NCBI GenBank assembly: GCA_045636065.1
Contig: JAZTWW010000046.1
Location: 1,489-65,488, forward strand
Origin: Kiritimatiellia bacterium
GTDB lineage: Bacteria > Verrucomicrobiota > Kiritimatiellia > RFP12 > UBA1067
Length of the DNA: 64,000 nt
Direction: 5' to 3'
In this document: positions 20,868 to 31,530 of the stretch, piece by piece
Numbering within the stretch: position 1 is the first letter of the stretch
Layout of the letters: every line of letters begins with the position of its first letter
Notes under the pieces: generated by a model
What the model saw: only the letters and a program-made list of their open reading frames with translations
Told to the model about the DNA's origin: nothing
Database searches by the model: none
Program-made: the position numbers and the translations under genes

Positions 20868-22427
20868 CTAGGATGCCATCAATCTCTTAATATACATTTT
20901 TACCTTAAGAGTTAAATACAACCTATCGTCCGTATCAAAGAGAAAATTCCATGCAGAAATAAACATCACAGAAATCGAACAAAAAGACAAAACCACTAAT
21001 CTCACAAACGACTGAGCCATGACTGTCTGTAGAAAAAGCCCAGAAACAATCCCTACAATCGAAATACAACACAATGGCAAAACGACAAATCTAAGCCAGT
21101 ATCTTGCGCTTAATCCAGTATACAATCTTGCGACAAATACATCTGACAAGCATGCTAAGACTGTTGTAATTATCAATGCAATGCAAACCATGTATGGTTG
21201 TCTACAAATTAAGATCGTCACCATGGACAAAGGAATCGCCGTAAGACACGCAGTTCCCCTGAATAATTGGAACCAAGCGACCTTGCCAACAGCTCGGACC
21301 GCCTGCCCCTGACCAAGTGACAACTTTTCCAAGACAACAACGACAAGCCAACAAAGGCATAGAGATTCTGCATGTTCGGGGGGATTTTTAAGCCATACCT
21401 TCAACACTTCTGAAATCTCAAGGCCTATAGGAACCGCAAAAACCATCGTTAACAACGTCCCGAATTTACTCGCAGTATATGCTAGTTTTGTCATACGTTT
21501 CATATTTCCTTCGCCGTAAGCAGTTGTCACCGCTGGACCAAACGCCCCATTCAGTGCACCTGTTAAGGCAGCCGCCTCTCCCCCTACTGTCGATCCTACA
21601 GTATAAGCTGCGTTTACCTTTGGCCCGAATATCTTATTAACAATAATTTCAAGACACTGATGACGCGCAAGATAACCTATTCCTCCAAAAGCCTGCCACC
21701 AAGCATAGCTAGCCAACTGCTTAATTTTTTTTAAGTTCATTATCGAAGACAGAACCATTCTGCATTCAGGAAAAACTTTGAGTGCACGAACACAAATTAC
21801 CATTTGCGGCACAATAGCAATAATGCACATTGCACACCCATACCCCAACAACCAATCCCTTTCAATAGTAGTCATATAATAAACAAAACCAGTTCTGAAA
21901 AGGACCTGCGTTAAGCTATATGCCGTTAGCTCAGCTATATACTGTTTTGCAGTAAACATAGCCTGAAAAGGGACATTGATCATGCTTATAAAACAGGAAA
22001 TCATGGAGAAACGCCAAAGCCAAAGACATGTTTCAATTCTAGATGCTGGTATTGTGAGCCAGCCGGTGGTTATCGCCATTTTCCCTAACGGATAGCCAAG
22101 AGCAACCAGAAAAAGTGGAAGAATCGTATGAATCATAACACCTGTAGTAAACCATTCACGACATTCAGATATTGCTCTCGTTTTATCTGTTGTAGCGTTC
22201 GCCTTTCCGATTGAGTAAGCGTAAAATCTACTTAACGCTGCACTAAATTGGATATTTATGAAGCTTACAAATAGCACAAGGCTTCCTACAACGCCAAACA
22301 ACCCAAACTTCTCGTGCCCTAAGGCCATCAAAACCCACCTTGTAGAGAAAATACCGCACAATACGCCTACAAGTGTTCTTCCGTAAGTTGCAAGAACATT
22401 AACAACTATTCTCTGATTTGGGGACAT
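20868..22427 (-). CDS. Wzx-type oligosaccharide flippase (MOP superfamily)
   Basis: 519 aa with 12-14 TM helices and polysaccharide-biosynthesis-protein topology. Confidence 0.75.
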   Translation of the reverse strand: MSPNQRIVVNVLATYGRTLVGVLCGIFSTRWVLMALGHEKFGLFGVVGSLVLFVSFINIQFSAALSRFYAYSIGKANATTDKTRAISECREWFTTGVMIHTILPLFLVALGYPLGKMAITTGWLTIPASRIETCLWLWRFSMISCFISMINVPFQAMFTAKQYIAELTAYSLTQVLFRTGFVYYMTTIERDWLLGYGCAMCIIAIVPQMVICVRALKVFPECRMVLSSIMNLKKIKQLASYAWWQAFGGIGYLARHQCLEIIVNKIFGPKVNAAYTVGSTVGGEAAALTGALNGAFGPAVTTAYGEGNMKRMTKLAYTASKFGTLLTMVFAVPIGLEISEVLKVWLKNPPEHAESLCLCWLVVVVLEKLSLGQGQAVRAVGKVAWFQLFRGTACLTAIPLSMVTILICRQPYMVCIALIITTVLACLSDVFVARLYTGLSARYWLRFVVLPLCCISIVGIVSGLFLQTVMAQSFVRLVVLSFCSISVMFISAWNFLFDTDDRLYLTLKVKMYIKRLMAS

Positions 22428-24037: not shown

Positions 24038-25390
24038 CTAAATGAGATATTGCCGCGCACATGTCAGCAATCGGAGTAGATTTTTAGAATTATCAGAAGT
24101 CCAAGCACTGCTTGAACTTTCTTGTTTTTGAATATTATTAATAAGATCTGCTAGTTCATAACGCAATCCATCTCCGACAAAAGAACAAAACACGCGTCTT
24201 GTTGTCTGTCCCATATCATTTCTAACCTCAAAATATTCGGTTTTCCACCAAGGGCTTGGAACATAAATATAACCAGTCGTTCCCGCCACAGTCAAGGCTC
24301 CCTCTGACTTTGCAGACAAGCCTACCGTGAAGATTCCTGTCGCGGAGGGATACTTGATCATACCCGTCGCAAAGGACTCAACGCGATCACTTGGGTCACG
24401 AAGCGGATGAATCGTCATTTGTGATGGGTCAGCCGGACCGAGCAACTTGATAATCGGACAGAGTACATACGAGGCAAGTTCAGATATCGCGCCACCACCC
24501 ATTGCCGGATCGTACTCACGAAGTGTCTTATCGAGCGTTAACTTAGTAAAGACGGCGTTCACTTGGCGAATCTTGCCAATCACGCCCCCCTTCGCCAAGT
24601 TGACAAGCCGTTTGAAGCATGGGGCAAAGGCTGTCTTAAGAGCCTCCTGAAGAACAACACCGTTTTTCGACGCCAAGGCATAGAGATCCTTTGCTTCTTC
24701 ATAGTCAAGCGTCAATGGTTTCTCGCACAGGACATGCTTCTTTGCCGTTAGCGCCTTACGCACATAGTCGGCATGGAATGGATGCGGTGTGGCAACATAG
24801 ACGACATCGACAGATTGCAACATCACGTCAAAATCTGAATATGCATCCTTAATCGAATGCTTCGCGGCAAACTCATCTGCGAGATTTCGCATTGGATTGC
24901 ATACGGCATCAAACACGATGCCTGACACAAATCGACTTTCGACGATAAACCGATTGGCTATTCTCCCACAGCCGACGATCCCACCGCGGAGAATGTGCCG
25001 CGAATCATTTCGGATCATTGTCGAGCTAATGCCCTTCGTTCGCGGCAGATAAACCACTTCGCACCATTCTTTCAGATAATCATACTTTCCGAGCCAGTCG
25101 TCGCCAATGACAAAAACATCTATGCCGTAGCGCTGTACGTCTTCAATCTTCTGCCCCTCATATTCTTCAACAAATATTACGTCTGCCATCCCACTATCCT
25201 TGACTTGCCCCATCCGTTCGATGAGACTTTGCACAACATTCAGCTTGCCGCGCTCACGATCGTAATTTTCGCTTGTGACCCCAACGAAGAGCTTCCCGCC
25301 CGTACCGCAATACATTCGTGCTCTTTCCAGAATGCGGCGATGCCCATCATGAAAGAAATCAAATGTTCCGTATGTTATCACATTAGCCAT
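24038..25390 (-). CDS. bifunctional TagD-like cytidylyltransferase / Gfo-Idh-MocA oxidoreductase fusion
   Basis: N-terminus ITYGTFDFFHDGH (HxGH CTase) followed by a Rossmann GIVGCGRIANRF and Gfo/Idh/MocA dehydrogenase body. ATG at 25390 with AAGGAG SD; ORF-track TTG start at 25408. Confidence 0.75.
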   Translation of the reverse strand: MANVITYGTFDFFHDGHRRILERARMYCGTGGKLFVGVTSENYDRERGKLNVVQSLIERMGQVKDSGMADVIFVEEYEGQKIEDVQRYGIDVFVIGDDWLGKYDYLKEWCEVVYLPRTKGISSTMIRNDSRHILRGGIVGCGRIANRFIVESRFVSGIVFDAVCNPMRNLADEFAAKHSIKDAYSDFDVMLQSVDVVYVATPHPFHADYVRKALTAKKHVLCEKPLTLDYEEAKDLYALASKNGVVLQEALKTAFAPCFKRLVNLAKGGVIGKIRQVNAVFTKLTLDKTLREYDPAMGGGAISELASYVLCPIIKLLGPADPSQMTIHPLRDPSDRVESFATGMIKYPSATGIFTVGLSAKSEGALTVAGTTGYIYVPSPWWKTEYFEVRNDMGQTTRRVFCSFVGDGLRYELADLINNIQKQESSSSAWTSDNSKNLLRLLTCARQYLI

Positions 25391-25533
25391 TCTTTCTACT
25401 CCTTTCAAACTCTAATTCGTAATGTTTAGCACCGCCAACACCCAGCAATATACGAGCAATCCTCATATGAGCGCATACAAACTCCGCCCATATGTGGCAA
25501 CAATGTTCAGAAATATGCGACGATTAGGGGACA

Positions 25534-25734
25534 TTACTTTTCCGGCACCAATTGCGCGGCATCCAACTTATACATCAGCATACTCGCGAACATCAATTTC
25601 CTGACAGCATCTTCTTTACTGATCATCATGTCCTCATGTGCTTTAGGATTCCTTATGGCACTCATCGCCCCAGAAAACATCATCATATATCCACGCTGCG
25701 TATCTTTATTGGTCTGAGTATCAAGATTACCCAT
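25534..25734 (-). CDS. small hypothetical protein (possible C-terminal fragment of a TIGR02391-like gene)
   Basis: 66 aa containing FSGAMSAIRNPKAHE, recalled as a TIGR02391-type RNPxAH motif (memory-based). Confidence 0.3.
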   Translation of the reverse strand: MGNLDTQTNKDTQRGYMMMFSGAMSAIRNPKAHEDMMISKEDAVRKLMFASMLMYKLDAAQLVPEK

Positions 25735-25881
25735 GAATCCTCTCTGTCACGTTCCACGGGCGGCTTTCCTCTTCTTCCTTTGTCATTGGACGACATTCCA
25801 ATATTCTACAAGGATTCTCCGTCGAGAACAAATCTATCTTGTTTAGTGCCATAGGCATAATTCGATAGTCTTACACTTATA

Positions 25882-26580
25882 TCATTTGGCATTGTTTTTG
25901 AGTTTTTCAACCAACACAAATGATGCCAAGAATTCTGAATACTTTATCACGAAGCGCAAATACTGCCATAAGAATGCTAATGATATCATAATGTTCAATA
26001 TCACAGCCACGACTACACATGGCCAAGATGAGCCTGATTCCACAAGTATCACGACAATTGGAAGCAGTGCGAAAACTGATGTCATAAAAAGCACTCTGTT
26101 CAGGCCATAATACGCCATGTAATTCATGCCAGCAGGCGGTTCTCCTCCAAAGCGTGCTTGAGCAATGAGTCGCAATTCCCTCCGAGAATCCTCGCATGGC
26201 CTATAACCGAAAATATGTTCAAATGTCTCATACATGGCCTTTGCTTTATCGCGTATTGAGGATGGAATCTCCGTCTCAGGATTCATTGCATCAATTACGC
26301 CTGCGAATGGGTGTTTCATTCGTGATAGGTGCTTTCTAGCAAATGTATGCTCAACCAGCAAACTCGAAAGCGCATTGGCTAGATGACCCGCTATGTAACC
26401 AAGAATGACAACAACAAAATACGACCACTTTGATGCCTCCATCCAAGAAAACAGTACTTGCGCCTTACCTGGGCAAAAGGCGTACAAGTAAAGCAACCCC
26501 ACACCAAGGAAGGCAAAGCCAGACACCCAATAGCAAAACAAATCGTAAAATGTCGCTCTATTTGATAGTGTGCTAGACAT
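25882..26580 (-). CDS. hypothetical 4-TM membrane protein
   Basis: 232 aa with two N-terminal and two C-terminal hydrophobic helices flanking an ~80-aa soluble loop. No recognisable family. Confidence 0.45.
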   Translation of the reverse strand: MSSTLSNRATFYDLFCYWVSGFAFLGVGLLYLYAFCPGKAQVLFSWMEASKWSYFVVVILGYIAGHLANALSSLLVEHTFARKHLSRMKHPFAGVIDAMNPETEIPSSIRDKAKAMYETFEHIFGYRPCEDSRRELRLIAQARFGGEPPAGMNYMAYYGLNRVLFMTSVFALLPIVVILVESGSSWPCVVVAVILNIMISLAFLWQYLRFVIKYSEFLASFVLVEKLKNNAK

Positions 26581-26598
26581 ATCTACTTTTTTTTATCG

Positions 26599-27123
26599 CT
26601 AATCGCACAAACAAGAAATCGTTGGAATTCCGTACGCAATAATCAGTTTTTCAACCAAAAGCACCGGATTATCCGGTGAGAACACACGCTGCATCAAGGT
26701 CTGCCCATCAAGTTCGATATTGAATCGCGACTGCACCTTAGCTTTGACTGCATTATTGACTTCCTTAAATGCACTCAAAACAGCATCTGCATATTGACGC
26801 GACTTCATACGCGACTCGGCCACACGCCATACTGCAGGATGAGATATACCTTCTGTGCCGTAAAAATCTTGAGATGCCATCATTCGCAATGACATTAACT
26901 TCTTTATAATTGCATTTGCATCCTCAACGTTCATTCGCTGATTTGATCTCGTTGGCAAATGTGCTACGCGCACATCACGAACTTCATTTTCAAGCGAATG
27001 CCAAACCGCAAACGCCAACAACTTATCAGCAAGCTCCGACACCTCCGGTGTATCACCGTCCACACGATGCTTGCTGTACAACTCTAAAACCCGCAAAATT
27101 AAATCATCTATCTCATCAACCAT
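26599..27123 (-). CDS. hypothetical protein (possible N-terminal part of a TIGR02391-like protein)
   Basis: 174 aa. C-terminal YADAVLSAFKEVNNAVKAKV...GQTLMQRVFSPDNPVL resembles the first half of that family (memory-based). Confidence 0.4.
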   Translation of the reverse strand: MVDEIDDLILRVLELYSKHRVDGDTPEVSELADKLLAFAVWHSLENEVRDVRVAHLPTRSNQRMNVEDANAIIKKLMSLRMMASQDFYGTEGISHPAVWRVAESRMKSRQYADAVLSAFKEVNNAVKAKVQSRFNIELDGQTLMQRVFSPDNPVLLVEKLIIAYGIPTISCLCD

Positions 27124-27671
27124 GTCTTACCATATAAATAGAATTCTTTCCGGACTTTCCGCTACACTGGTAGCAGGCTTATATCCAAGTATGCGTAAAT
27201 ATTGGTTACGTTTCTACAAAATGTGATCTTCTCACAAATTACCGTCGCCGTACGGCGCTATAAAACAACCATGCACCATTTGCACAACTGACTATTCGAC
27301 AGTGTAGTATCCACCAGTTTCCTTGTTGCCACGACACCCGATTGAATCCAGTATCTTGGTGTGGACAGTTCACGCGAAAGTATAGCCTGGGATTTCCCTT
27401 TCAATGCAATCAAAGCTAATAGGGATAAGCCCTATTAAAGGCCTTCGCGCATGCCACCTTGCGGTATGACTTCATGTTCTGCAAAGTATTCTTGCCTGTG
27501 AAAATACTGTAGCGGCAGGGATGCCTTCTGTTTTGCCGGAGCGGAGTTCGTCAAGTCTTGTACGGCATTCCGCTAGCCACGCTGATTCAATTTCCAGATC
27601 AGTTGCGTTGCATGCAGGCATAAATCTGCGGTTTTCGTTCACGATGTTCGTCTCGCTCGGTTTGCTTGGGA

Positions 27672-28289
27672 CTACATAGTCCGAACGAATTCACGTACTT
27701 TTGATTCTATCTTCTGCTTGACTTCTTTCCAAGTCATGTGGACTAGCATCTCTGGCATTGGATCAGGCTCGGCGTCATCGAAATATGTCAACCCTCTCAA
27801 GGCAAAAGAAAACTCTGTAAGGGAATACTTGCTTTGATACAGGTCAAACATTTCCTTCAGCGAAAATCTGTCCAAGAGGAATGATATATCGACAAAATCC
27901 TTCTTTCTGCCTCGGTTGGCTGTAGCAGAGATCTTCATAGGTACGATATCAAGGATATCCGCAAGTTTCACGCCATCCTCAACAATTGGAGCTTTCAACC
28001 ATGGGTATGGATAATTCACAAAATCGACCTTGACCCCATCTACTCTTAGAAACTGCATCTGCCCATTATCTCTTCCTTCTGCGGAATGCCCAGAATTCAA
28101 AAGCAGTGAGCGAAATGAAATATTTTCATCAAAACTGCCAAAGAGATCAAGATCTATTGATTTTCTGTGTCCAAGAATCAGTGCAAGCGCAGTACCGCCG
28201 ACAAGACGGATGTCTGCGGCAGCAGGCAACGACTGGATATCCCTCAATATATCCAGGGTGCTGGCGAGGACTGTTTCTGTGTGTAGCAT
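27672..28289 (-). CDS. nucleotidyltransferase AbiEii/AbiGii-family toxin (type IV TA)
   Basis: N-terminal LVGGTALALILGHRKSIDLDLF motif of AbiEii-type nucleotidyltransferases. Confidence 0.7.
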   Translation of the reverse strand: MLHTETVLASTLDILRDIQSLPAAADIRLVGGTALALILGHRKSIDLDLFGSFDENISFRSLLLNSGHSAEGRDNGQMQFLRVDGVKVDFVNYPYPWLKAPIVEDGVKLADILDIVPMKISATANRGRKKDFVDISFLLDRFSLKEMFDLYQSKYSLTEFSFALRGLTYFDDAEPDPMPEMLVHMTWKEVKQKIESKVREFVRTM

Positions 28290-28540
28290 CTGAAGTTCTC
28301 TCTCGGTTCATTGGCTACGCAGGCGATAAAGGATAAGGCCATTGGTTCAAGGGTGCGCAAGGATTTGGCAGTATCTATCACTTCTGGAAGGCCGTATGTC
28401 TTGAATGCAAAGCGCAAGTCGTCAACCGTGCCCCTTTCGAGGACACGCTGGACGACGTACTTCCTGTGCTTCGCCAAATCCAAATCATTGGGATCGGCAT
28501 CCCAAAACAGGTTCGGCGAAAATGTAGATGTGTTGGACAT
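28244..28540 (-). CDS. putative cognate antitoxin (DUF6922/AbiEi-like small protein)
   Basis: MSNTSTFSPNLFWDADPNDLDLAKHRKYVVQRVLERG... overlaps the toxin start by ~46 nt. Preceded by the conserved promoter motif. ORF-track start 28657 rejected. Confidence 0.5.
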   Translation of the reverse strand: MSNTSTFSPNLFWDADPNDLDLAKHRKYVVQRVLERGTVDDLRFAFKTYGLPEVIDTAKSLRTLEPMALSFIACVANEPRENFRCYTQKQSSPAPWIY

Positions 28541-28566
28541 GGTTATCTGATTGGTTTGCATTCTCA

Positions 28567-28578
28567 AGTCTGTGTGTA
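28567..28578 (-). promoter_or_regulatory. extended -10-like promoter motif (TATGGTATAATAC)
   Basis: Plus-strand tattataccata ~27 nt upstream of the antitoxin ATG. Confidence 0.4.
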
Positions 28579-28885
28579 TTATACCATACTTTGCGACAAG
28601 GATGCAAGTGAGCAAATGTAAATAATAAAGGGCTATTTGGATACCGTTGGGGCGCAAGAAAAAGGTAGAGGGCTATATGGATACCGGTGTGGGAAAAGAA
28701 AAATGTGCAAAAGCTCCGCTATCGTCAAGTATGCGGGATGCTTGACGTCTAGTGCCAATTGTAGGATGGTTTGGCATTGGATTTGCCCGGGAACCGTTAG
28801 GTGGTTCAAGGGGCTAATATAATACCATTTTAGGTGGGGAAGTTCAAGTAGAATTAGTAGGGTTTTTCAGAGGGAGGGGATGGGG

Positions 28886-29250
28886 GCTGACGCGATTGGT
28901 GAGGGGACTTAATTATCGCTGACTGTTTGAATTGGCGCTGACGCGCGACCACGAAAATTTGCTTGTCGGGGTATTGGCGCTGACGCGATTGGGGGATGGA
29001 CTAAATAATGGCAAAAAGTTCGATATGGCGCTGACGCGCGACCACGAAAACTGCTTAAGGCGAATCGCGCCCACGGCGCGATTGCAGCGAGCGGGTCGCT
29101 TCCCTGCTTGAAGACCGCGACTGAACTCCCCTTCACTTGGGTCGACTGTAATCTGAGCGGTCTTCGCAGGAAGCGACTCGCTCACTGCAACCCTTCGGGT
29201 TCTCGCCTTAAGCAGACACGAAAACCGCCTTCGGCGGACACGAAAAGGCT
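28886..29250 (+). repeat. repeat element copy 1 (~300 bp, orientation A) with gcgctgacgcg sub-repeats
   Basis: Near-identical inverted copy at 30160-30450 and direct copy of that at 31290-31530. Shared termini cacgaaaaggctggaaa and ggcgctgacgcgcgaccacgaaaa. Confidence 0.7.
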
Positions 29251-29812
29251 GGAAATCATTTGCTTGGAATCTGCATAGCGGTACTTCAATGCTACAAAAA
29301 GAGCATGGGATTGGAAATGTTGGGCATGGTTGACTTGGATGCTGCAAAAAGAGCATAGCGGCACAATGGAGAATATCAAAACATGCCGCCAACTTCAGAT
29401 GTAGGGGAATAACTTGCTCACATGGCGCATGGGGCACAATGGGGTTTATCGATATATGCCGCCAACTTAGGCAGGGTGAGACGTAAATTAATTGCTTGTG
29501 GGGGAGTGGGTGCTGATGCGCAGACACGAAAAGGCTGGAAAATTTTTACTTGGCATGGGACTAGTGTCACTTCAATGCTGCAAAAAGAGCATGGCGGCAC
29601 AATGGAGTATATCGGAACATGCCGGTAACTTGGGATGTAGGTCAATTACTTGCTCTGATGGCGCATGCGGCACAATGGGGGTTATCGACATATGCCGCAA
29701 GCTTGAGGAACTCGAGCGTAGAGCAGAGTCGCAGGTTAATTGCTTGCTCCAAAGGCGCATGCGGCACGAGGGGGTCTATCGACATATGCCGCAAGCTTCG
29801 GGAGCACTAAGA
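29237..29812. repeat. two tandem ~285-bp repeat units with hairpin sub-repeats
   Basis: Units begin ...acacgaaaaggctggaaa. Each contains gctgcaaaaagagcatggcggcacaatggag... and ggcgcatgcggcacaatggggg ttatcgacatatgccgc (GCGGCA/TGCCGC stem). Confidence 0.65.
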
Positions 29813-29894
29813 GAATGCTCTCTTTCACACTGCAATAATGCTTTCTGTATCACGGTGCAATAAAGCGTTTTTTTACGGTTGAATAAAGCTTTCG

Positions 29895-29990
29895 GTCTAA
29901 GGCCCATTGTTCAACTACGGCCTTTTGGCATGCACCGAAATTAACCAAAAGTCCGATTTTGCCACCGGTTATCCGAAGATGGTTCTATTA
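29895..29990 (-). pseudogene. truncated 3' fragment of a GxxExxY-family gene
   Basis: About 95 bp with ~90% identity to the 3' end (30610-30705) of the intact GxxExxY gene. No upstream coding continuation. Confidence 0.6.
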
Positions 29991-30159
29991 TTTGCTCAAT
30001 GGTGGAAATACTATATACCCTTTTGCAACATGCACGTGATTATTTGCCCATTGGAGCAAACGCCATGCTCATTTGCAGCATGCAAGTCACCCCATGCTCA
30101 AGAGTTCCAGTAACATGCTCTTTTGCAGCATAACAGGTGATTGTTCGCAAATTCTAAGC

Positions 30160-30450
30160 AAGATTTTCCAGCTTTTTCGTGTCCGCCGAAGGCGGTTTTC
30201 TATCTGCTTAAGGCGAAAACCCGAAGGGTTGCCGGCTGTCGCGGAGCTTCCTGCGAAGGCCGAGCATATGCAAGTGATGGATCCGTGAAAGAGTTGATAC
30301 TGGCCTTCAAGCAGGGAAGCGACGCGACAGGCGCAATCGCGTCGCAGACGCGATTCGCCTTAAGCAGTTTTCGTGGTCGCGCGTCAGCGCAAATGCAAAC
30401 ATAAGCAGGTTTCGTGGTGGTCGGTTGCGCGTCAGCACCAATGCGGATAG
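30160..30450 (-). repeat. repeat element copy 2 (inverted relative to copy 1)
   Basis: Reverse complement aligns with 28930-29250. Internal hairpin gaatcgcgtc-tgc-gacgcgattc carries compensatory changes relative to copy 1. Confidence 0.7.
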
Positions 30451-30606
30451 TGCGATAAATTAGGTGTCGCTTACGGCACAATAGGGTCTATCGACATATG
30501 CCGCCAACTTAGGCAGGGTGAGAGAACACCTGCTTTCACGGTGATCCAAGCACGAGACTATCTATGATGACGATATTGTGTTTCTATAAAGCATTCTGTC
30601 CAAACA

Positions 30607-30987
30607 TCATCTCGCCCATTGTTCAACTACGGCCTTTGGGTATGCACCGAAATTGACCAGAAGTCCGAGCTTGCATCCGGTAATCCGAAGATAGTTCATC
30701 AGCTGCTTCCTATGCTCCTTTACCAGTTCGGACACGGCCTTAATTTCGACTATGATCTTGTCGTAACAGAAGAAGTCCGGTATATATGTCTTGTCGATTG
30801 GCGCACCTTTGTAGAATAAGCGCAATTCCTTCTTGGCCTCAAAAGGTATGCCCCGAAAGACAAACTCCCTTTCAAGGCATTGCTGATAGACCTCCTCAGC
30901 AAATCCGTTCCCCATCTCTGTGTAAACCTCAAATATCGCACCGCGTATGAGATAGCATTCATCTGGATATGTCATATTGTTTTTCAT
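30607..30987 (-). CDS. GxxExxY-family protein (PD-(D/E)XK-like)
   Basis: 126 aa with GNGFAEEVYQ (GxxExxY) and typical length. Flanked by direct copies 2 and 3 of the repeat element. Confidence 0.7.
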   Translation of the reverse strand: MKNNMTYPDECYLIRGAIFEVYTEMGNGFAEEVYQQCLEREFVFRGIPFEAKKELRLFYKGAPIDKTYIPDFFCYDKIIVEIKAVSELVKEHRKQLMNYLRITGCKLGLLVNFGAYPKAVVEQWAR

Positions 30988-30993
30988 GACATG

Positions 30994-31005
30994 TATTATA
31001 CCAGA
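30994..31005 (-). promoter_or_regulatory. extended -10-like promoter motif (TCTGGTATAATAC)
   Basis: Plus-strand tattataccaga within ~10 nt of the GxxExxY ATG. Confidence 0.35.
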
Positions 31006-31184
31006 ATTTGACGCTTCTGCGCCAGCATTTTCGTTGCCAAAGAATCACCCCCCTCATGTCGTTAGCCCTCATACCTAATATTCCTTGAGTTGCTTCCATA
31101 ATGAGGCTCAAGATGATCCTTTGCTGCACATCAAATAAATGCAGGCATCTTGTGCTTCAAGCAAGTGTCCGCCCAATGGTGCAA

Positions 31185-31290
31185 ATACCATGCTCTTTTG
31201 CAGCATGCAAGTCACCCCATGCTCAAGAGTTCCAGTAACATGCTCATTTGCAGCATGACAGGTGATTGTTCGCAGATTGCAAGCAAGATT
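31185..31290. repeat. palindromic mini-hairpin cluster (CATGCTCnTTTGCAGCATG units)
   Basis: Three ~20-nt palindromic units. Same cluster in the same orientation at 30040-30140 and reverse-complement units (GCTGCAAAAAGAGCATG) in the opposite orientation at 29300-29600. Confidence 0.55.
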
Positions 31291-31530
31291 TTCCAGCTTT
31301 TTCGTGTCCGCCGAAGGCGGTTTTCTGTCTGCTTAAGGCGAAAACCCGAAGGGTTGCGGCTGTCGCGGAGCTTCCTGCGAAGGCCATGCACATGTAAAGT
31401 GGTGGATTAGTGAAAAGGTTGAAACTGGCCTTCAGGCAGGGAAGCGACGCGACAGGCGCAATCGCGTCGCAGACGCGATTCGCCTTAAGCAGTTTTCGTG
31501 GTCGCGCGTCAGCGCCATCTTGGATAATGC
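31290..31530 (-). repeat. repeat element copy 3 (same orientation as copy 2)
   Basis: ttccagctttttcgtgtccgccgaaggcgg...cagttttcgtggtcgcgcgtcagcgcc is nearly identical to 30160-30390. Confidence 0.7.

Follow-up and report, generated by a model that had tools for sequence, protein, structure and literature searches.

Three adjacent minus-strand genes in a 64,000-nucleotide stretch of a Kiritimatiellia bacterium (NCBI GenBank assembly GCA_045636065.1, contig JAZTWW010000046.1, positions 1,489 to 65,488; hereafter the window) raise the question as to whether they form a defence module of three separate components or are the remains of a single gene that has been interrupted by another. The initial annotation had left both options standing. 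The three open reading frames (ORFs) lie head to tail in a common reading frame:

27123..26599, minus strand: 5' ORF of a gene of the Ymh (TIGR02391) family, 174 aa (ORF list)
26580..25882, minus strand: ORF for a membrane protein, 232 aa (ORF list)
25734..25534, minus strand: 3' ORF of the Ymh gene, 66 aa (ORF list)

As set out below, we consider it likely (probability of roughly 0.8) that a single-gene HEPN defence or toxin locus was broken here by one illegitimate-recombination event, and that the three genes are gene wreckage and not a new three-part system.

Two halves of one HEPN domain and the empty site

The 174-aa product had been thought to end with the first half of the TIGR02391 family and the 66-aa ORF to carry the C-terminal motif of that family, and profile searches bear out both suggestions. 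Pfam PF09509 (Hypoth_Ymh) aligns its positions 4-63 of 119 with residues 95-158 of the 174-aa product (43.1 bits, E = 4.7e-11) and its positions 62-118 with residues 1-56 of the 66-aa product (49.6 bits, E = 4.3e-13), either half by itself scoring above the Pfam cut-off of 25. TIGR02391 is also covered in complementary halves, 2-63 (26.4 bits) and 62-124 (33.9 bits) of its 125 positions; taken singly, either half falls below the curated cut-off of 39.45, so the hidden Markov model (HMM) check proposed for the separate products succeeds with the first model and not with the second. When the halves are rejoined (residues 1-158 plus residues 2-66), they give a single unbroken PF09509 match (4-118 of 119, 99.2 bits, E = 1.9e-28), which is the full-length alignment that the proposed concatenation was to test for. 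The motif FSGAMSAIRNPKAHE is present and holds the HEPN Rx4H signature; this RNPKAH (Rx4H) sits in the 66-aa ORF, and the motif column is invariant across 38 homologues.

Ymh proteins have been described as predicted RNases of the HEPN superfamily with a conserved Rx4-6H motif, encoded either alone or in fusions in the setting of defence or of restriction-modification (Anantharaman et al. 2013, PMC3710099). Going by its sequence, the product of the rejoined gene is likewise a predicted HEPN RNase. It resembles the family in its full-length domain match, its RNPKAH motif and its position as a solo gene in a defence/toxin–antitoxin (TA) islet next to AbiEii, but differs in that the N-terminal domain of its subfamily (~90 aa) has no family assignment and in that its HEPN domain is spread over two ORFs. 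There is no contiguous polypeptide for this domain, which is split after residue 158 by 918 bp with stops in all frames; 865 bp separate the two ORFs. The HEPN part (residues 95-218 of the rejoined protein) also matches the C-terminal parts of PADLOC PD-Lambda-3 protein B (143-264 of 270, E = 1e-12) and of an Argonaute-associated HEPN protein (255-379 of 382, E = 2e-9). These matches are confined to the HEPN, the N-terminal parts and partner genes of both proteins being absent here, and the locus is not a PD-Lambda-3 system, none of the flanking ORFs scanned against PADLOC matching a PD-Lambda-3 model. Searching PDB sequences with the Ymh profile gave no meaningful match, and Foldseek placed HEPN proteins among the best matches, without significance, for an AlphaFold2 (AF2) model of an intact orthologue (P0010; mean predicted local distance difference test score, pLDDT, 83).

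Intact orthologues reveal what the locus looked like before. A search of 5.8 billion proteins returned about forty Ymh homologues, nearly all of 219-235 aa, which span residues 1-159 of the 174-aa product and then continue; apart from that of the window, none of the close homologues is split. The closest intact orthologues (221-223 aa) are up to 91% identical to the rejoined window protein, the closest Ymh protein from a named genome being 47% identical. Intact homologues read ...NPVLLVE-GNLDTQTNKD..., in which the end of the Ymh part of the 174-aa product runs straight into residue 2 of the 66-aa ORF. The same is seen in the DNA: positions 978-1457 of locus L005 correspond to window 27130..26651 and positions 1458-1718 to window 25732..25472, so that the adjoining positions 1457 and 1458 correspond to 26651 and 25732 of the window, and loci L006 and L007 are alike. 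The empty site reads GTTGA/GGGTAAT in these three independent loci, where the window has GTTGA-(918 bp)-GGGTAAT, with neither duplication nor loss of target bases. Because the intact orthologues are uninterrupted exactly where the window has 918 extra bases, an unrelated gene was inserted into one whole ancestral Ymh gene, as the first of the two original options held. The insertion point lies between codon 158 (Glu) and codon 159 (Gly) of the 223-aa Ymh protein, and in the P0010 model the break maps to the loop that joins helix 140-147 to helix 164-182, and this second helix runs into the catalytic Rx4H motif. The locus can thus be parsed as follows:

26651..27123, minus strand: 5' part of the Ymh gene, codons 1-158, with the N-terminal helical domain and the first HEPN half, ending ...FSPDNPVLLVE (90% nt identity to L005 978-1457; PF09509 4-63; protein alignment to P0010 and others)
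26599..26650, minus strand: read-through tail of the 174-aa ORF, KLIIAYGIPTISCLCD and then a stop, insert-derived and non-Ymh (orthologue homology ends at 26651; translation)
25733..26650, minus strand: insert of 918 bp (306 codons), in frame, its right end ambiguous by a 3-nt GGG at 25730-25732 (empty site of L005-L007 versus window)
25534..25732, minus strand: 3' part of the Ymh gene, second HEPN half with RNPKAH, annotated as the 66-aa ORF 25734..25534 (93.5% nt identity to L005 1458-1718; PF09509 62-118)

The insert, its donor operon and its membrane protein

The insert consists of the membrane-protein gene flanked by a leader and a trailer, and a short repeat links its left end to the end of that gene:

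26587..26650, minus strand: leader, 64 nt, whose first 6 nt (AAAACT) together with the preceding 8 target bases copy the 3' end of the membrane gene (homology to L078 and L082 begins at 26586)
25882..26580, minus strand: intact gene for the 232-aa protein with four predicted transmembrane (TM) segments, putatively Csx27/PDC-M48A-like in the extended sense, an orphan without metallo-β-lactamase (MBL)-fold and gene X partners (homologues; ratio of non-synonymous to synonymous substitution rates, dN/dS; hhalign; hydropathy; AF2)
25733..25881, minus strand: trailer, what decay has left of the 5' end of gene X, about 52 codons (nt identity of 80% to both L078 and L082, ending at the right junction)
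26645..26658, minus strand: left copy of the 14-nt exact repeat TTGGTTGAAAAACT, across the left junction with 8 nt in the target and 6 nt in the insert (repeat search)
25901..25914, minus strand: right copy of the 14-nt repeat, at codons LVEKL in the native 3' end of the membrane gene (repeat search)

The likely source is preserved in three loci (L078, L079 and L082), in which the membrane gene is 75% identical and which match window 26586..25730 at 80% over 857 nt. This match takes in the membrane gene and the whole 149-nt trailer, up to the right junction. The native order in metagenome contigs is a PDC-M48B-like MBL gene, the four-TM gene and gene X (255 aa), with the start of X overlapping the membrane-gene stop in all three loci and, in L082, the C-terminal end of a PDC-M48B-type gene (PADLOC E = 4e-20) upstream of the membrane gene. 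The donor fragment runs from 6 nt 5' of the membrane gene to within codon ~52 of X; by homology, 857 of the 918 bp are shown to derive from a donor operon fragment truncated inside X. Within the trailer are a 43-aa ORF (25858..25727) and, close to where X natively starts, two TAA stops in frame. This 43-aa ORF (LFSTENPCRILE...) was considered as a second Ymh fragment and rejected, having no Pfam match and leaving the Ymh HMM silent in every insert frame with filters off; it is the N-terminus of X. Gene X itself (L082 1506-2273 and L078 1495-1998; P0098 and P0099; 231-255 aa) forms two clusters in 5.8 billion sequences. Its product has no Pfam, PADLOC or PDB sequence match, and by eye its HAG ... 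STS ... (E)LEVLF motifs are reminiscent of ADP-ribosyltransferases.

Both joints retain traces of how they may have formed. At the right junction the sequence is ...ATACATGGG/ATATG in the donor, ...GTTGAGGG/TAATC in the target and ...ATTCATGGG/TAATC in the window, and the joint therefore lies in a shared GGG microhomology. The X codons CAT GGG at this junction form the ATG of the 66-aa ORF, whose start codon, judging from these codons, is an accident of the truncated gene X. At the left junction, eight target bases (TTGGTTGA) and the six insert bases AAAACT together make up the sequence of the 3' end of the membrane gene. The resulting 14-mer occurs twice in the 64 kb, versus 0.02 copies expected, and is native to the membrane gene, the equivalent place reading TTGGTTGCAAAACT in locus L001 and TTTGTTGTAAAATT in L078. 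Beyond these six bases, 58 nt of the leader remain, for which neither the window nor any of 80 fetched loci offered a source. Upstream of the insertion point, at a distance of 11 nt, the SPDNPV codons form a hairpin with a 7-bp stem (CACCGGA-TAA-TCCGGTG, 26662-26678, minus strand), which pairs less well in the intact orthologues. This hairpin may have a bearing on template switching as a replication pause site, or may be a coincidence.

We looked for signs of mobility in the insert. Neither terminal inverted repeats nor a target-site duplication were seen at its ends, and it contains no transposase, recombinase or endonuclease ORF. An Rfam scan of 24,500-31,500 returned no family at E<=1, hence no known intron, and an intron or structured RNA was set aside on this null result. 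There are no constant ends either, because homology with other loci stops at different points (L001 shares the ORF alone, whereas L078 and L082 run on into an intact gene X) and because the insert includes a truncated gene. The hallmarks of a transposable element, a miniature inverted-repeat transposable element (MITE) or an integron cassette (duplication, terminal repeats or an attC-like site, constant ends, a recombinase) are lacking; the insert is not a mobile element.

The 232-aa product had been described as a four-TM protein of no recognisable family. The topology is upheld by hydropathy, with hydrophobic segments at about residues 14-35, 55-76, 160-181 and 186-212, and by an all-helical AF2 model with long helices (pLDDT 88). 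The lack of a family stands in so far as the protein has no direct Pfam, NCBIfam or PADLOC match and no NCBIfam model recognises its relatives, but it gives way once remote homology is considered. Close homologues are 75-77% identical and of equal length, and the subfamily is rare, with eight clusters in the 5.8-billion-sequence database and no relatives in 185,579 species-representative genomes or on viral contigs. Searching 1.84 billion representatives exhaustively with a profile brought up 48 distant relatives, similar in length and with motifs in common. The PADLOC Csx27 model matches 8 of 21 aligned members (best E = 3e-8, model 3-197 of 206) and PDC-M48A weakly matches seven of the 21 (best E = 6e-4), while the window protein has no match to the Csx27 model at E<=1 and none to the PDC-M48A models. 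Aligning the profile of the window subfamily with the Csx27-matching subset gave an hhalign probability of 99.9% (E = 6e-33), and by such remote homology the 232-aa protein probably belongs to the extended Csx27/PDC-M48A family. The gene is intact, and its dN/dS of 0.13 versus L001 indicates past purifying selection. With Ymh a predicted HEPN RNase (PMC3710099) and the membrane protein tentatively placed in a family, the initial view that none of the three products has an assignable function needs amending.

The genomic company of the relatives is consistent with this placement. MBL-fold genes adjoin them in about 18 of 19 metagenome loci and match PADLOC PDC-M48B at E = 3e-63 and 2e-58. PDC-M48, as defined in PADLOC, is a candidate system composed of a PDC-M48A membrane and a PDC-M48B MBL-fold component; it comes from bioinformatics, and our literature search found no published mechanism. 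The relatives resemble it in that a PDC-M48B-type gene is their immediate neighbour, in metagenome loci as well as in L082, whereas the window has the membrane component alone, with no PDC-M48B gene beside it. According to Makarova et al. 2019 (FEMS Microbiol Lett 366:fnz088; summarised in PMC7642515 and PMC11662929), the extended Csx27 family consists of four-TM proteins whose genes accompany those for parts of the natural-transformation machinery, and the MBL-fold adjacency agrees with the description given in those summaries. Compared with Csx27, the accessory protein of type VI-B1 Cas13b, the window protein is alike in size (~230 aa), in its four TM helices, in that distant members of its family match the Csx27 model and in the MBL-fold (ComEC-type fold) neighbours typical of that family. 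It differs in lacking a direct model match and in its native partners, a PDC-M48B-like MBL protein and the 255-aa X. Neither cas13b nor a CRISPR array lies beside the membrane gene, the neighbours of which are the Ymh fragments, the AbiEii pair and sugar-biosynthesis genes; no ORF in the window is longer than 927 aa.

Other loci show further arrangements. In L057, L061 and L070 a Csx27-like gene has a PDC-M48B-type MBL-fold gene on either side, the two being different (the upstream one of about 290 aa, the downstream one of about 375 aa), which suggests a three-gene variant of the PDC-M48 candidate system. Next to a close copy of the membrane gene in L002 (1264-8169), a PDC-S35 TIR protein (E = 1e-81) and a GHKL-type ATPase are encoded, as is a 674-aa protein whose match to NERD is weak. 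Another close copy, in L003 (3939-7344), is N-terminally truncated (149 aa) and lies just after a SIR2_2 gene amid small ORF debris, followed by a 263-aa protein with a weak TIR-effector match. Judging by their labels, the related metagenome samples and metagenome-assembled genomes would come from work on animal gut or rumen.

A probable accidental insertion and its alternatives

The explanation that we favour starts from a single-gene defence or toxin locus encoding a 223-aa Ymh protein whose N-terminal domain is helical and whose C-terminal domain is a HEPN RNase. One illegitimate-recombination event would have placed 918 bp between codons 158 and 159, the inserted DNA being the 64-nt leader and a fragment of an MBL/four-TM/X operon. 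The joints would have arisen by template switching or microhomology-mediated end joining, with GGG at the right and an 8-nt match plus 6 templated nt at the left; we infer the template-switch model from these joints, and there may have been more than one switch. Illegitimate recombination is preferred to a mobile element because of the microhomology joints, the lack of an intron model, terminal repeat or recombinase, and the varying ends of homology. The 174-, 232- and 66-aa products are each singletons, found on one contig among about 15 billion proteins. Inactivation of the HEPN RNase appears far more likely than its survival, because the catalytic half is detached and has an accidental start codon alone. 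Read-through from the Ymh promoter, on the other hand, probably keeps the membrane gene expressed, without its usual partners, and the event would have been a neutral or toxin-disarming accident rather than an adaptive design. Recombination between the 14-nt repeats would not restore Ymh, because the resulting junction would read ...LVEKLKNNAK-stop.

Several observations weigh against this account. The Ymh halves carry 2 private changes at conserved columns, versus 0-5 in intact homologues, and have an overall dN/dS of about 0.16; there is no measurable decay, and the case for loss of function therefore rests on architecture and not on sequence erosion. Both halves stay open, the insert being in frame. 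Some translation of the 66-aa ORF is conceivable, given its GAGAGG...ATG context and its overlap with the stop of the upstream remnant ORF. Since no source was found for the 64-nt leader, recombination may have taken more than one step, and the split arrangement is known from a single assembly. Relaxed selection on the Ymh halves was also considered and set aside, there being no excess of private substitutions and pairwise dN/dS being uninformative on the time since insertion.

The openness of both halves could also mean that the HEPN fragments reassemble non-covalently, with the Csx27-like protein regulating or partnering the RNase in analogy to Csx27 and the HEPN RNase Cas13b, a reading that we regard as very unlikely. 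It would account for an in-frame insert, for halves of which neither has decayed, for a cut in an inter-helix loop and for a membrane gene that is intact and was under purifying selection, and the membrane family includes Csx27, an accessory of a HEPN nuclease (PMC11662929). There is also a precedent in phage Aeh1, where nrdA is split by the homing endonuclease gene mobE and the split enzyme works (PMC3045599). The two cases are alike in that a gene was inserted within a coding sequence and both resulting ORFs are open; mobE, however, is self-mobilising, whereas the gene inserted in the window has no mobility function and is accompanied by debris of a neighbouring gene, and function of the split products would be unlikely. 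The arrangement is moreover unique to one contig, other close Ymh homologues are unbroken, and the genes paired with relatives of the membrane protein encode MBL-fold proteins, X, SIR2 or others but in no case Ymh; the co-occurrence with TIGR02391-type genes for which the initial annotation proposed to search is absent from the loci examined. The dead X remnant and the 64 nt of filler mark an accident, and the start codon of the C-terminal half is fortuitous. The three-component module is unsupported on similar grounds, the arrangement being confined to one contig, the insert being an arbitrary operon fragment truncated in its second gene and the 66-aa start being accidental. A more specific proposal, in which the capture of a Csx27-family gene inside a HEPN gene is no coincidence, the halves reassembling and the membrane protein gating or anchoring the RNase, seems to us very unlikely. 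If true, the locus would show, at the moment of its birth, a minimal counterpart of the Cas13b-Csx27 pairing that does without CRISPR.

The remaining explanations concern the nature of the 918-bp segment. Its precise insertion with no target bases lost, the hairpin 11 nt upstream of the insertion point and the presence of the membrane gene in several differing genomic contexts could be taken to indicate a site-targeting mobile element or cassette (transposon, MITE, integron-type cassette, IS200/IS605-like passenger, intron or homing element). This is highly improbable in view of the missing target duplication, terminal inverted repeats, transposase, recombinase, endonuclease and Rfam intron match, the inconstant ends with a truncated gene included, and the lack of copies on viral contigs. 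We consider least probable of all that a chimeric read join has fused two strains or loci during assembly. The arrangement does occur in one assembly alone, and the DNA may stem from a metagenome-assembled genome whose community of origin included related strains; both flanks nevertheless continue seamlessly in one Ymh gene, the sequences shared at the joints (3 and 14 nt) are far below assembler k-mer sizes, and all other copies found are 20% different from the insert, which is therefore no collapsed copy of a sequenced relative.

The surrounding islet and the meaning of the insertion

The AbiE-type neighbour reported initially is confirmed: an AbiEii gene (27672..28289; PF08843, E = 6.6e-11) lies 549 bp upstream of the Ymh start, with an antitoxin remnant in between. 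This AbiEii-type nucleotidyltransferase toxin gene (205 aa) overlaps a DUF6922 gene (137 aa, E = 9e-19; together 27672-28657, minus strand), a partner that is not a canonical AbiEi antitoxin. The remnant is a 56-aa ORF (27472-27642, minus strand) that matches the C-terminal part of Unstab_antitox/TIGR02574 alone (profile 23-54 of 54) and has no adjoining toxin gene, making it another gene remnant in the islet. On the other side, the Ymh gene is followed by one more truncated gene:

25461..25533, minus strand: 5' stub of a Wzx-like flippase gene (MSPNRRIFLNIVATYGRSLYALI, then a stop), directly after the Ymh stop and part of the ancestral Ymh unit (stub also after intact Ymh in L005-L007; stub alignment)

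The flippase stub (MSPNRRIFLNIVATYGRSLYAL...) recurs intergenically at the edges of polysaccharide loci (L001 1307-1341, L002 8230-8295, four places in L003, L081 2293-2349). The four copies in L003 fall within 12 kb, and the intact flippase of the window (22427..20868) begins with the identical peptide. The stub looks like a recombination scar or hot spot bounding exchangeable gene slots. In several related contigs, the Ymh and flippase-stub unit fills a variable slot between TA/defence genes and a polysaccharide-biosynthesis cluster. Because the membrane gene of L001 sits in that very slot, its occupancy fits an exchange of DNA between strains with alternative occupants. Further upstream, a non-coding repeat complex of ~1.6 kb (window 28876-30520) consists of long imperfect inverted repeats (for example 29028-29116 versus 30302-30390, 89 nt at 88%, and 29220-29255 versus 30165-30200, 36 nt at 97%) around direct repeats that are 71-136 nt long, with spacings of 94 or 236 nt. 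It has no Rfam match; an invertible or a regulatory region, lying upstream of both the TA genes and the polysaccharide cluster, is one possibility.

The components of this locus are new members of known families, and the event is ordinary in kind but unusually well resolved. For annotation, the 174- and 66-aa ORFs should be flagged as pieces of one disrupted gene. The locus provides a clean case of defence-island remodelling in which donor operon, empty target and microhomology joints can all still be traced, and on the reading that we favour it documents how illegitimate recombination would disarm a toxin-type gene and orphan a membrane component. It also ties a very rare membrane subfamily, by remote homology, to Csx27 and PDC-M48A, and the native three-gene context of this subfamily could help the study of Csx27-like proteins.

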